Positions 42,961 to 45,079 of a DNA stretch of 64,000 nucleotides are shown here, piece after piece (position 1 is the first letter of the stretch; every line of letters starts with the position of its first letter). Source of the stretch: an uncultured Anaerolineaceae bacterium (GTDB lineage: Bacteria; Chloroflexota; Anaerolineae; Anaerolineales; E44-bin32); assembly GCA_964385355.1 (NCBI GenBank), contig CAYLOO010000003.1:2879-66878 (forward strand). The letters run 5' to 3'. Below the pieces are notes generated by a model. That model had not been told where the DNA came from. It saw nothing but the letters and a program-made list of their open reading frames with translations, and searched no databases. The position numbers were made by a program, and so were the translations under genes.

Positions 42961-44211
42961 ATGGAAGCAAACGTGAACCCAACAAATGAAATCCTCGCTA
43001 TCATCCCCGCTCGAGGTGGCTCAAAGACGGTCCCTCGAAAAAATATCCAGCCGCTTGCCGGCCACCCGCTCATTGCCTACAGCATCGCTGCAGGTCTTCA
43101 AGCGCAGCGAGTTAACCGTGTGATTGTCTCCACCGACGACGAAGAGATCGCTGAGATCAGCCGTTCCTACGGCGCAGAGGTTCCTTTCCTGCGTCCGTCA
43201 TCGTTAGCTGGAGATGAGACGGTTGATTTGCCGGTATTCAAGCACGCGTTGGATTGGCTGGCGGAGAACGAGTCCTATCAGCCAGAGATCGTCGTTCAAT
43301 TGCGACCGACGTCACCGCTGAGACCGCCTGACTGCGTCGATAGAGCACTTAATATCATCCTCGAGAACCCGGAAGCCCACTCGGTTCGCGGCGTCATTCC
43401 CTCCGGTCAAAATCCTTATAAAATGTGGCGAATAAGTCCTGAAGGCAACCTGCACCCACTCATCGATAACGACTTCGAGGAACCCTTTAACATGCCCCGC
43501 CAGCAGCTCCCACAAACGTATTGGCAGACGGGGCATATCGATGCGATCCGTGCTTCAACGATCCTCGAGAAAGGGAGCATGAGCGGCGATAACATCCTGC
43601 CGCTGGTTATAGACCCTCGTTATGCCGTTGATATCGATACAGCGAAGGACCACGAGCATGCGCAGTGGATCCTGGGGTATTCTGATCTCCCCCTAATCAG
43701 ACCCGGGCGTAAGGTAAGACTGTTACCTCAGAAGGTGGAATTGGTCGTTTTTGATTTCGATGGGGTCATGACGGATAACCGTGTCTGGGTCGATGCTGAC
43801 GGCCGTGAGCTCGTTTCGGCCAATCGCGGCGATGGGTGGGGTGTGGCTCGCCTGAAAGAGACCGGCACACAAATTGTTGTCCTTTCAAGAGAGACTGATC
43901 CTGTCGTTGCCGCACGTTGTCGGAAGCTGGGAATCGAAGCGATCCAGGGCACCAAGGACAAAGCGAAAACGCTTCAAGAACTCATGGAGTCTCGAGGAAT
44001 TGACGCCAATCAGACGGTCTACCTTGGAAACGACGTTAATGATGTAATATGTTTCCCGCTTGTGGCTTGTGCTCTCGTTGTAGAGGACGCCCATTCTGAT
44101 GCTAAAGCACGAGCGGATATCATCCTGACAAAGCGGGGTGGGCGGGGTGCGGTCCGAGAATTGTGTGACATCCTGATTAAGAACAGGGAGGAGTCTTCGA
44201 CGAATGAGTGA
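42961..44211 (+). CDS. Fusion protein: N-acylneuraminate (NeuA-type) cytidylyltransferase + KdsC-like HAD sugar-acid phosphate phosphatase
   Basis: N-terminal half: AIIPARGGSKTVPRKNIQPLAGHPLI, RVIVSTDDEEI and QLRPTSPLR. C-terminal half: LVVFDFDGVMTDNRVWVD, GDGWGV, YLGNDVNDV and GGRGAVRE, which are the HAD motifs I-IV of KdsC/KDN-9-P phosphatase type. Confidence 0.85.
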   Translation: MEANVNPTNEILAIIPARGGSKTVPRKNIQPLAGHPLIAYSIAAGLQAQRVNRVIVSTDDEEIAEISRSYGAEVPFLRPSSLAGDETVDLPVFKHALDWLAENESYQPEIVVQLRPTSPLRPPDCVDRALNIILENPEAHSVRGVIPSGQNPYKMWRISPEGNLHPLIDNDFEEPFNMPRQQLPQTYWQTGHIDAIRASTILEKGSMSGDNILPLVIDPRYAVDIDTAKDHEHAQWILGYSDLPLIRPGRKVRLLPQKVELVVFDFDGVMTDNRVWVDADGRELVSANRGDGWGVARLKETGTQIVVLSRETDPVVAARCRKLGIEAIQGTKDKAKTLQELMESRGIDANQTVYLGNDVNDVICFPLVACALVVEDAHSDAKARADIILTKRGGRGAVRELCDILIKNREESSTNE

Positions 44212-45079
44212 GCAATTCAACATTGGCGCGACTGCCGTAGGGACGGGTCAACCCACGTACGTTGTGGCCGAGATAGGCATCAACCATAACGGCGACATGG
44301 AGATCGTAAAAGGATTAATCGATGCCGCTCATCGAGCAGGCGTTGATGCGGTGAAGTTCCAGAAACGGACTCCAGAATTGTGCGTACCGCCCGATCAGCA
44401 AGAGCGGAAACGGGAGACGCCGTGGGGGTACATCACCTACCTTGAATATCGGTATAAAGTTGAGTTTGACGCTGCAGAATATCAGGAGATCGACCGGTAC
44501 TGCAGAGAGAAAGGAATCGCATGGTTCGCGTCTGTGTGGGATGAGCCCTCGGTAGACTTCCTTGAATCCTTCGATCCTGTGGTCTACAAGATCCCTTCTG
44601 CCTCGCTTACGGATCATGATTTGCTGCGACATGTTCGCAAGGCGGGACGACCTGTGATCCTGTCGACGGGCATGTCCACAATGGAAGAGATACAAGCGGC
44701 AGTCGATGTAATCGGGACCGAAGATCTACTCATCACACATGCCACGAGCACATACCCATGTGAACCTGAGGAATTGAACCTGCATATGATTCAGACCCTT
44801 AAAGAGGCTTATCCTTGCCCGATTGGTTATTCAGGGCATGAGGTCGGCCTGATACCAACAGTTGTTGCTGTCTCTTTAGGTGCTTGTTTGGTTGAGAGGC
44901 ATATTACACTTGATCGTGCTATGTGGGGAAGCGACCAGGCGGCTTCGGTAGAGCCGGGAGGATTCCGCCGTTTGGTTAAATACATCCGCGTGACAGAAGC
45001 GAGTCTTGGTGATGGGGTTAAACGCGTCTACGATAGCGAGATGTCGTCTCTGCAGAAACTACGACGAGTGAAATCCTAG
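44204..45079 (+). CDS. NeuB-family sugar-acid (phosphate) synthase lacking the C-terminal SAF domain
   Basis: Motifs PTYVVAEIGINHNGDMEIVKGLI, KFQKR, ILSTGMSTMEEI and GYSGHEVG. It ends at 291 aa, about 60 aa short of SAF-containing NeuB proteins. It overlaps the upstream gene by 8 nt. Confidence 0.85.
   Translation: MSEQFNIGATAVGTGQPTYVVAEIGINHNGDMEIVKGLIDAAHRAGVDAVKFQKRTPELCVPPDQQERKRETPWGYITYLEYRYKVEFDAAEYQEIDRYCREKGIAWFASVWDEPSVDFLESFDPVVYKIPSASLTDHDLLRHVRKAGRPVILSTGMSTMEEIQAAVDVIGTEDLLITHATSTYPCEPEELNLHMIQTLKEAYPCPIGYSGHEVGLIPTVVAVSLGACLVERHITLDRAMWGSDQAASVEPGGFRRLVKYIRVTEASLGDGVKRVYDSEMSSLQKLRRVKS

Follow-up and report, generated by a model that had tools for sequence, protein, structure and literature searches.

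A NeuA-HAD fusion and a SAF-less NeuB as the probable core of a phosphate-dependent, Kdn-9-phosphate-type nonulosonate module in an Anaerolineaceae surface-glycan island

The stretch of DNA analyzed here, referred to below as the window, comprises 64,000 nucleotides from an uncultured Anaerolineaceae bacterium (GenBank assembly GCA_964385355.1, contig CAYLOO010000003.1, positions 2,879 to 66,878). The whole window is one very large surface-glycan island, and it holds a Wzm/Wzt ABC exporter, many glycosyltransferase family 2 (GT2) and GT-C-like transferases, and methyltransferases, together with three CTP_transf_3 genes and two NeuB genes. Our subject is a pair of overlapping genes in this island, one encoding a protein of 416 amino acids (aa) in which a NeuA-type cytidylyltransferase is joined to a KdsC-type phosphatase that belongs to the haloacid dehalogenase (HAD) class, and the other a NeuB-family synthase of 291 aa that lacks the SAF domain. 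Based on comparisons of sequence, domain order, and synteny, it seems probable that this pair is the core of a phosphate-dependent nonulosonate module of the NANS/Kdn-9-phosphate type (Kdn, ketodeoxynonulosonic acid). The genes and their parts are the following:

42961 to 44211, plus strand: NeuA-HAD fusion of 416 aa, a nonulosonate cytidylyltransferase joined to a predicted nonulosonate-9-phosphate phosphatase (domains and synteny).
42961 to 43671, plus strand: NeuA-like N-terminal CTP_transf_3 domain of the fusion, aa 1-237, of the "type II" described below (PF02348, 81.7 bits; residues on PpNeuA numbering).
43729 to 44196, plus strand: C-terminal HAD-IIIA domain of the fusion (C0, KdsC/KDN9PP-like), aa 257-412, a predicted phosphatase (best PDB match 3mmz).
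44187 to 44191, plus strand: Shine-Dalgarno-like GGAGG for NeuB, inside the 3' end of the fusion gene (sequence reading).
44204 to 45079, plus strand: SAF-less NeuB-family synthase of 291 aa, NANS/Kdn-9-P-synthase clade (PF03102 only; tree; motifs).

Both open reading frames (ORFs) were read from the window sequence and start with ATG. The 416-aa translation contains the stretches IPARGGSK..PRKN, DFDGVMTDN, GDGWG, and GNDVNDV, all of which had been quoted in an earlier reading of this DNA made without database searches (hereafter the sequence-only reading), and the two domains assigned there are borne out by profile searches. Pfam places CTP_transf_3 (PF02348) at aa 13-147 with 81.7 bits (cut-off 22.6) and Hydrolase_3/HAD at aa 295-391; the NCBIfam matches, one to a PseF/NeuA-like domain and one to a HAD-IIIA domain of the KdsC/KDN9PP-like kind, span aa 12-237 and aa 257-412, respectively. 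The N-terminal domain scores 161.5 bits against TIGR03584 (PseF-like), which is under the cut-off, and at most 55 bits against KdsB. Furthermore, the fusion matches both parts of mouse CMAS, structure 1qwj with its N-domain and 3ewi with its C-domain, and it shows the two-domain CMAS/CSS architecture, that is, CTP_transf_3 and a KdsC-like HAD on a single polypeptide. The two genes overlap by 8 nt, as had been stated before, with the NeuB ATG at 44204-44206 and the TGA of the fusion at 44209-44211; the GGAGG lying inside the fusion gene suggests that translation of NeuB is coupled to that of the fusion gene. Scans of positions 40400-52400 did not rise above the shuffled expectation for either promoters (10 vs 12.2) or terminators (14 vs 11.5).

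Each of the two proteins has at least 8000 relatives in the databases. The 120 best matches per protein agree with the window proteins in length and domains, and those that are named belong to Anaerolineales or Chloroflexota. A scan of GTDB species genomes with the HAD-domain alignment, using search patterns that included the DFD and GND motifs, returned more than 477 relatives, the best 80 loci of which were analyzed (ORF starts in high-GC loci are approximate). NeuA-HAD fusions account for 71 of these 80 loci; in 6 the HAD truly stands alone, and 3 are interrupted by the end of a contig. Where downstream DNA was sufficient (76 loci), a NeuB with a median length of 291 aa starts -60 to +250 nt downstream in 61 cases, and none of these synthases has a SAF domain. 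The hosts belong to more than eight phyla and are chiefly Anaerolineae, including the cultured Bellilinea caldifistulae; the others are Nitrospiraceae, Acidobacteriota, Planctomycetota, Kiritimatiellae, Thermodesulfobacteriota, an alphaproteobacterium, Streptomyces, Sanguibacter, and a Methanoregula metagenome-assembled genome (MAG). In this last, archaeal MAG (Methanoregula sp., locus L060), a stand-alone HAD of the same lineage (163 aa) is immediately followed by a SAF-less NeuB of 288 aa, which shares 50% identity with the window NeuB.

The survey of the fusion's spread that the sequence-only reading had proposed thus gave a broad distribution, and it also bears on the concern raised there that the fusion might be an artefact of sequencing, assembly, or gene calling. 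We regard such an artefact as barely conceivable: the identical protein pair is also present on an independent JGI metagenome contig, the linker is in frame and the ORF continuous, and some of the fused loci come from closed chromosomes and from isolates in culture (Bellilinea caldifistulae, Streptomyces spp., Sanguibacter). The fusion followed by a SAF-less NeuB is common, and its architecture is of an already recognized kind. Daughtry et al., in 2013, reportedly noted KDN9PP orthologues fused to the nucleotidyltransferase of the pathway. The CMAS C-domain is stated to be present in vertebrates and "in some types of bacteria" (PMC8636478); our literature searches found no specific description of the bacterial fusion or of nonulosonates in Chloroflexi, and SugarBase was uninformative on this lineage.

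Several lines of evidence suggest that the HAD domain is a working phosphatase. Its best PDB match is 3mmz (134 bits), followed by KdsC structures at about 87 bits and BT1713 (3e81) at 70 bits. HAD motifs I to III are present in the form of the DFDGV nucleophile motif, a Ser at the position of BT1713 Thr54, and Lys80, and the DxD is also kept in homologues that were found by whole-protein similarity, independently of the motif search pattern. According to work attributed to Lu et al. in 2009 and Daughtry et al. in 2013, a Glu/Lys pair together with a conserved Arg is said to separate Kdn-9-P from Kdo-8-P phosphatases (Kdo, 3-deoxy-D-manno-octulosonic acid). The corresponding Glu56, Arg64, and Lys67 (BT1713 numbering) are found in the window HAD and in 3mmz; the BT1713 sequence used was verified to be 100% identical to PDB 3e81, of which 4hgq is the E56A mutant. 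In the four KdsC structures, position 56 is occupied by Arg and position 67 by Asp, Ala, or Ser. Glu56, Arg64, Lys67, Lys80, and Ser54 are invariant in 80/80 loci from more than eight phyla.

These residues also speak to the possibility, raised by the sequence-only reading itself, that the protein is a KdsB-KdsC fusion of the Kdo pathway that makes CMP-Kdo from Kdo-8-P. It is true that the KdsC models of NCBIfam are the top matches of the HAD domain (116.6 and 100.7 bits) and that some sources label homologues "YrbI family Kdo-8-P phosphatase". Nonetheless we consider a Kdo function highly improbable, as all KdsC and KdsB scores fall under their cut-offs, the specificity residues are Glu/Lys and differ from the KdsC pattern, and the N-domain fits NeuA/PseF far better than KdsB. 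The coupled synthase belongs to the NeuB family rather than to KdsA, and the module occurs in the monoderm Streptomyces and Sanguibacter and in an archaeal MAG.

Another possibility is that the HAD domain serves as a non-catalytic oligomerization scaffold, in which case NeuB would act on a non-phosphorylated sugar, or an unrelated housekeeping phosphatase would remove the 9-phosphate. The first Asp of motif IV ligates Mg2+ in KdsC and BT1713, and Asn stands at the corresponding place of the GNDVND motif of the window, as it does in 3mmz and throughout the 80 loci, although GND was within the search pattern. The mouse CMAS C-domain is HAD-like, inactive, and serves oligomerization (PMC8636478), and the alga Prymnesium parvum has no recognizable Kdn-9-P phosphatase, sugar phosphatases being redundant (PMC6200933). 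We judge this explanation very unlikely, since the nucleophile motif, the Ser of motif II, the Lys of motif III, and all three residues for substrate binding are kept without change in more than eight phyla at 45-90% identity, a conservation for which a scaffold would have no need. In addition, the partner synthase falls into a phospho-sugar clade, so that its product would need a phosphatase, and stand-alone copies of the same HAD adjoin the same NeuB in L060 and L081.

The evidence from the synthase comes from its domains, active-site residues, motifs, and phylogeny. As the sequence-only reading had observed, the 291-aa protein consists of the NeuB domain alone (PF03102, 270.6 bits; cut-off 22.1), and the second NeuB encoded in the window (21599-22669, 356 aa) combines NeuB and SAF domains. 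The N-acetylneuraminate synthase equivalog TIGR03569 is matched below its cut-off (259.5 bits vs 399.65) over profile positions 1-275 of 329, the SAF part being missing. Equivalents of E25, K53, Q55, K129, S132, S154, Y186, S213, H215, E234, H236, and D247 of NmNeuB are all present in the window NeuB, and the same 12 catalytic, metal-binding, and phosphoenolpyruvate (PEP)-binding residues occur in 60/60 HAD-linked NeuBs. Two other positions differ from NmNeuB. Its Glu134, which has been proposed as one of three catalytic glutamates, is replaced by Ser in the window NeuB (aa 134) and by either Ser or Ala throughout the 60 HAD-linked NeuBs, which also have Trp in place of Phe112.

A signature derived in this analysis, KFQK[RS] together with [WFY]G..TY..[RK]..[LV]E[FL], is shared by the window NeuB, all HAD-linked NeuBs, human NANS (sequence verified as exact), PpKdn9PS (the P. 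parvum Kdn-9-P synthase), and BT1714, the last with KMTKR in place of the KFQK[RS] part; the latter three are phospho-sugar synthases of characterized function. It is missing from NmNeuB, PseI, SpsE, 6ncs, and the SAF-containing NeuB of the window. In a neighbor-joining (NJ) tree of 25 taxa (200 bootstraps; some of the PDB reference sequences are partial), the HAD-linked NeuBs, human NANS, and PpKdn9PS form one clade with 96% bootstrap support, apart from the synthases for non-phosphorylated sugars, within which clade the synthases of the window, Streptomyces, Sanguibacter, Acidobacteria, and Pirellulales form a subclade at 100%. It is known that the P. parvum Kdn-9-P synthase takes mannose-6-phosphate (Man-6-P) and not mannose (PMC6200933). 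We predict from these similarities that the window NeuB condenses PEP with a hexose-6-phosphate. Given that the window's two NeuBs share 28% identity and belong to separate clades, the product of the module is probably a second nonulosonate, distinct from that of the PseB/NeuB cassette, in agreement with what had been proposed.

The absence of the SAF domain is a different matter. The sequence-only reading had tied it to the phosphate route, and we reject it as a marker of that route: the BT1714 orthologue (a 346-aa synthase that adjoins a BT1713 copy of 99% identity and was taken to be BT1714) and human NANS have the domain, the P. parvum enzyme (312 aa) does not, and the SAF-less 6ncs falls outside the clade. 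SAF-less NeuBs form whole branches of the NeuB family (PMC8208679). Two further observations concern the synthases. Met42 of human NANS is said to be a determinant of Kdn synthesis (Hao, 2006), and this position was uninformative here, the aligned residue being Ala in both the window and the Streptomyces NeuBs. In a Sedimentisphaeraceae and a Thermodesulfobacteriota MAG (L076 and L077), fusions of type I (see below) are followed by SAF-less NeuBs that cluster with the Kdn-9-P synthase of the eukaryotic alga P. parvum at 100% bootstrap, which hints at a bacterial origin of the algal enzyme or at an exchange with it.

Which acid is activated is a question for the NeuA domain. In CMP-sialic acid synthetases, the sugar is contacted by a Ser/Thr at O4 and by a strictly conserved Gln at O8/N5, and position 196 of PpNeuA is Arg in Kdn-specific enzymes and Leu in enzymes for N-acetylneuraminic acid (Neu5Ac) (PMC12934254). 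PpNeuA was rebuilt from the supplement of that paper, and its numbering matches the paper. The CTP-binding Arg19, Lys28, and Arg78 are kept in all 72 full-length fused sequences that were aligned. The residues at 89/110/196 in the window are Asp/Arg/Met, with RPTSP for QPTSP, so that all three canonical contacts are altered. On these positions the fusions fall into two types:

Type I fusions, 17 of 72 loci: Ser/Gln/Arg at 89/110/196; Streptomyces, Sanguibacter, some Chloroflexota, and others.
Type II fusions, 54 of 72 loci: Asp/Arg/Met or Leu at 89/110/196; the window, most Anaerolineae, Pirellulales (L051), Acidobacteria (L055), and L075.

Arg196 is found in 16 of the 17 type I fusions, the remaining one (L082) being gapped at that column, and one truncated sequence (L004) was left untyped. 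Type II is the majority form in Anaerolineae and is also found in Pirellulales and Acidobacteriota. The two types differ in a further respect, which involves a short-chain dehydrogenase/reductase (SDR) gene upstream of the fusion:

41021 to 41845, plus strand: classical SDR oxidoreductase of 274 aa (Pfam adh_short_C2/adh_short), co-conserved with type II fusions.

The motifs TGAAGLLG, NSAA, and YSVTK of this SDR are intact; its PDB matches are generic classical SDRs (sugar-acid or polyol) only and gave no functional assignment. A homologue lies immediately upstream of the fusion in 42 of 50 type II loci and in 0 of 16 type I loci (Fisher p=8.6e-10, uncorrected for phylogeny), usually with an overlap of 6-15 nt. 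The limits of 42961-45079 that the sequence-only reading had set for the module are therefore too narrow, as this co-conserved gene was left out. Four Chloroflexia/Chloroflexus MAGs (L014, L021, L024, and L032) have type II fusions without an adjacent SDR; beside the fusion there is an additional NeuA-like gene that stands alone and shares 58-59% identity with the fused N-domain, and a homologue of the 274-aa SDR (43-45%) lies about 3 kb away.

The NeuBs of type I (n=13) and type II (n=47) modules show no segregating alignment column, and their active-site residues are identical. Because the synthases are indistinguishable at their active sites, we infer that both types would make the same 9-phosphate and that the SDR would act after the synthase. 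The co-variation of the NeuA pocket with the SDR makes it probable that the SDR acts before activation with CMP. Most likely, then, the SDR oxidizes or epimerizes a Kdn-type acid after its synthesis and before its activation. C5 would be a candidate site, given that the change of the C5 gate-keeper from Arg to Met/Leu coincides exactly with the presence of the SDR. This type II variant, with a coupled SDR and a remodeled sugar pocket, appears to be undescribed.

The same pocket has to be set against a route like that of animals, in which PEP and N-acetylmannosamine-6-phosphate (ManNAc-6-P) would give Neu5Ac-9-P, the HAD would dephosphorylate it, and NeuA would make CMP-Neu5Ac or the CMP derivative of another N-acyl neuraminate. 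The NeuB shares a clade with human NANS, the overall architecture equals vertebrate NANS plus the two-domain CMAS, and residue 196 is Met or Leu, hydrophobic as in CMAS of the Neu5Ac type. There is also a PIG-L family de-N-acetylase gene nearby (47630-48268), and the S. coelicolor cluster discussed below is said to include a putative ManNAc-6-P 2-epimerase (PMC3479208). We nevertheless consider a Neu5Ac route unlikely. The canonical Gln for N5/O8 is now Arg and the Ser for O4 is now Asp, and the closest relatives with chemical data, those in Streptomyces, make Kdn rather than Neu5Ac. The NeuB active sites here and in Streptomyces-type modules are identical. Neither GNE nor any NeuC, NanE, or ManNAc kinase was found in the 64-kb island; among essentially all window ORFs of at least 150 aa, Pfam detected no NeuC-type epimerase (Epimerase_2), NanE, or ManNAc kinase, which confirms the earlier remark that the window has no NeuC. 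The Met at position 196, where a Kdn enzyme would have the Arg of PpNeuA, is not decisive, as trout CMAS prefers Kdn with Leu at that position.

Based on the HAD triad, the NeuB clade, and the Streptomyces pair, a phosphate-dependent route is thus the best reading of the module, as the sequence-only reading had proposed. In this route, NeuB would condense PEP with a hexose-6-phosphate, most likely Man-6-P, to a nonulosonate-9-phosphate (Kdn-9-P), and the C-terminal HAD domain of the fusion would strip the 9-phosphate to leave the free acid. The SDR would possibly oxidize or epimerize the free acid, the N-terminal NeuA domain would convert free acid and CTP to the CMP-sugar, and a 542-aa Capsule_synth/BFO_1060-like protein would probably transfer the sugar to the surface glycan of the island. 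Channeling between the fused domains, as proposed there, would be plausible.

Several points weigh against this reading. The phylogenetic check that had been suggested for both proteins came out in part only: the NeuB groups with NANS and PpKdn9PS, but BT1714 joins the phospho-sugar clade at only 46% support, and the trees are NJ trees on few taxa with some partial PDB sequences. On the side of the phosphatase, motif IV is GNDxND, with Asn where KdsC and BT1713 have Asp, and the KdsC models outscore the KDN9PP model with every score under its cut-off (NF007019, 116.6 bits against 208; TIGR01670, 100.7 against 106.95; NF058599 for KDN9PP, 82.6 against 180). Moreover, a small HAD tree splits the lineage from a group of KdsC and BT1713 with 100% support. 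Given the higher KdsC scores and the separate position in the tree, the Glu/Lys pair could be convergent; as the lineage did not group with BT1713, we claim that the domain works like a nonulosonate-9-P phosphatase and make no claim of orthology to BT1713. The homologous mouse CMAS C-domain lacks phosphatase activity (PMC8636478). The NeuA domain has neither the Kdn gate-keeper Arg196 nor the canonical Ser and Gln, and Neu5Ac enzymes typically have a hydrophobic residue at this last position (PMC12934254), which in the present numbering is 196. Finally, the statistic for the SDR association is not corrected for phylogeny.

With regard to the final product, the earlier proposal of CMP-Kdn or a related acid made from a hexose-6-phosphate stands as far as the phosphate route is concerned, and CMP-Kdn itself is insecure, the Ser/Gln/Arg contacts being missing from the NeuA domain. 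Plain Kdn is a possible but tentative choice for the activated acid, and an SDR-modified deaminated nonulosonate is one to the same degree; an N-acylated, Neu5Ac-like acid seems unlikely, and equally so some other compound. More specifically, it is conceivable, if doubtful, that the type II module ends not in CMP-Kdn but in a so far undescribed Kdn-derived nonulosonate, the SDR oxidizing or epimerizing the free acid.

The genes around the module are listed below, together with the other nonulosonate cassette of the island:

41823 to 42899, plus strand: sulfotransferase of 358 aa, between the SDR and the fusion (Pfam Sulfotransfer_3, Sulfotransfer_1).
45094 to 46722, plus strand: Capsule_synth/KpsC-KpsS-like protein of 542 aa with a BFO_1060-like domain (PF05159, 41.3 bits; NF046086, 45.2 bits, under cut-off).
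46815 to 51936, plus strand: remainder, after the 542-aa gene, of a block conserved in Anaerolineae (Pfam; synteny at 54-95% identity, about 30 loci), made up of the next six entries.
46815 to 47615, plus strand: methyltransferase (Pfam).
47630 to 48268, plus strand: PIG-L deacetylase (Pfam).
48347 to 49351, plus strand: GT2 (Pfam).
49425 to 50129, plus strand: stand-alone cytidylyltransferase of 234 aa, with Arg at the Kdn gate-keeper position (Pfam).
50134 to 51126, plus strand: D-2-hydroxyacid dehydrogenase (Pfam).
51163 to 51936, plus strand: second SDR (Pfam).
18808 to 26694: first nonulosonate cassette, with a PseB-like dehydratase (18808), an RmlD-like reductase (19824), a methyltransferase, NeuB with SAF (21599), and a glycosyltransferase family 1 (GT1) gene.
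Rest of the same cassette: aminoglycoside-3-N-acetyltransferase-like (23794), DUF4910/M28-like (24562), and cytidylyltransferase (25924) genes.

The sulfotransferase gene overlaps the SDR gene by 23 nt. In a 90%-identical relative (L003) it is missing at that position and the SDR abuts the fusion, and among the loci a homologue (58%) was found in L012 only; the sulfotransferase is thus, by its distribution, an accessory gene and not a conserved part of the module, and it may point to a sulfated glycan or a sulfated nonulosonate. Homologues of the 542-aa protein follow NeuB in most Anaerolineae loci at 42-89% identity. This putative CMP-ulosonate-dependent glycosyltransferase is the likely transferase for the product of the module. 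A 558-aa ORF beside the Wzm/Wzt exporter (16196-17872) has a weak Capsule_synth match of 17.4 bits, under the cut-off, and resembles the 542-aa protein; it may be a second ulosonate transferase.

The stand-alone cytidylyltransferase has the gate-keeper stretch SKNRLGER, compared with HKCRLGEK in PpNeuA. Arg196 is found in 31/31 members of its family, in which the remaining two sugar contacts are His and Met, and it always precedes the D-2-hydroxyacid dehydrogenase and the SDR. About 30 Anaerolineae loci keep this trio together with the type II module. The island has three CMP-transferases and two NeuBs. With this second, Kdn-type-Arg cytidylyltransferase, one synthase might feed two CMP-sugars in Anaerolineae. 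As for the first nonulosonate cassette, no aminotransferase of the DegT/PseC/LegC type and no hydrolyzing epimerase of the NeuC/LegG type were found anywhere in the window, and the cassette is therefore not a canonical pseudaminic acid (Pse) or legionaminic acid (Leg) pathway.

Elsewhere in the window, the protein encoded at 54650-55477 has an MptE-like (PF01973) domain, which also occurs in the Maf-type transferases that attach nonulosonates to flagellin. The regions 113-12402, 39102-40733, and 55478-58705 hold many long ORFs (488-679 aa) without a Pfam match. Several of them, for example 39102-40733, resemble multi-pass membrane proteins, and these long ORFs may be polymerases or GT-C-like transferases of the island.

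The fusion and the SAF-less NeuB that the sequence-only reading had flagged are, in summary, ordinary members of a surface-glycan island, and our analysis would link thousands of "N-acylneuraminate cytidylyltransferase / YrbI family" annotations in Chloroflexota, Planctomycetota, Acidobacteriota, Actinomycetota, and other phyla to a phosphate-dependent, Kdn-type route. The motifs KFQK[RS] and WG..TY..R..EF offer a sequence marker to tell phospho-sugar NeuBs from others. Anaerolineae are common in granular sludges. Kdn is abundant in the extracellular polymeric substances (EPS) of granular sludge, according to a study in which annotation was unable to separate Neu5Ac from Kdn synthases (PMC10483923). 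The split into types I and II, together with the SDR, predicts a modified Kdn that could be searched for in the cultured Bellilinea caldifistulae, which has the same module (L037). If the type II product is indeed an undescribed derivative of Kdn, it would be a widespread, unrecognized surface sugar of abundant environmental and wastewater bacteria.

The module can be compared with five known systems. The Kdo pathway (KdsC/KdsB/KdsA) resembles it in the HAD-IIIA C0 fold, in activation by a CTP_transf_3 enzyme, and in the logic of a phosphorylated 2-keto-3-deoxy acid; it differs in the synthase, which is KdsA and not NeuB, in the specificity residues, and in that all KdsC and KdsB scores remain under their cut-offs. 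The Kdn pathway of Bacteroides thetaiotaomicron, in which BT1713 is reported to be the Kdn-9-P phosphatase, BT1714 the Kdn-9-P synthase, and BT1715 the CMP-Kdn synthetase (Wang et al. 2008, Lu et al. 2009, and Daughtry et al. 2013, cited in PMC6200933), has the same three activities and the same logic of phosphorylated intermediates as the route predicted here. BT1713 and the window HAD have Glu56/Arg64/Lys67 in common, although they are 32% identical and not sisters in the tree. In B. thetaiotaomicron, however, the three genes are separate, the synthase is 35% identical to the window NeuB and has the SAF domain, and BT1715 belongs to a different CTP_transf_3 branch from the window NeuA domain.

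Vertebrate NANS lies in one clade with the window NeuB but retains the SAF/antifreeze-like domain. Vertebrate CMAS/CSS has, like the window fusion, an N-terminal cytidylyltransferase and a C-terminal KdsC-like HAD; the structure of the mouse C-domain, 3ewi, is reportedly that of Oschlies et al. (2009). In the window HAD all catalytic and substrate-binding residues that were examined are conserved save for the lineage-wide motif IV Asn, whereas the vertebrate CMAS C-domain has no phosphatase activity and a separate phosphatase carries out this step (PMC8636478). The residues kept in the bacterial fusion would fit the view that the vertebrate C-domain is a relic of a bifunctional enzyme. The P. 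parvum Kdn-9-P synthase is likewise a SAF-less NeuB, 33% identical to the window NeuB and in the same clade, and bacterial NeuBs of its subtype adjoin NeuA-HAD fusions in L076 and L077; P. parvum differs in having no recognizable Kdn-9-P phosphatase and in the gate-keeper Arg196 of PpNeuA, where the fused NeuA of the window has Met.

The closest parallel is found in Streptomyces, where the loci carry the same pair: a NeuA-HAD fusion precedes a NeuB of about 296 aa, which has no SAF domain, is 62-64% identical to the window NeuB, and falls into the same 100%-bootstrap clade. The Streptomyces HAD belongs to the same "GND" lineage as that of the window, and 3mmz is 76-81% identical to Streptomyces HAD domains. 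In Streptomyces sp. CC53 the order is a DUF6716 glycosyltransferase, the NeuA-HAD fusion (454 aa), and the SAF-less NeuB (296 aa), which matches SCO4879 (NeuE-like), SCO4880 (NeuA), and SCO4881 (NeuB) of S. coelicolor; that SCO4880 is itself a fusion is deduced from three other Streptomyces genomes. SCO4879-4881 are part of the PhoP-activated teichulosonic-acid cluster SCO4873-4882 (PMC3479208, PMC13011467), and teichulosonic acid is a Gal-Kdn polymer of the cell wall (PMC11481543); these three papers cite Ostash et al. (2014) and Shashkov et al. (2012) for the operon and its polymer. The two systems part at the sugar pocket and at the transferase: the Streptomyces NeuA is of type I, with the canonical Kdn-type pocket (Ser/Gln/Arg) and no adjacent SDR, whereas that of the window is of type II with a coupled SDR, and the DUF6716 transferase of Streptomyces shows no similarity to the 542-aa Capsule_synth-like protein that takes its place in the window.

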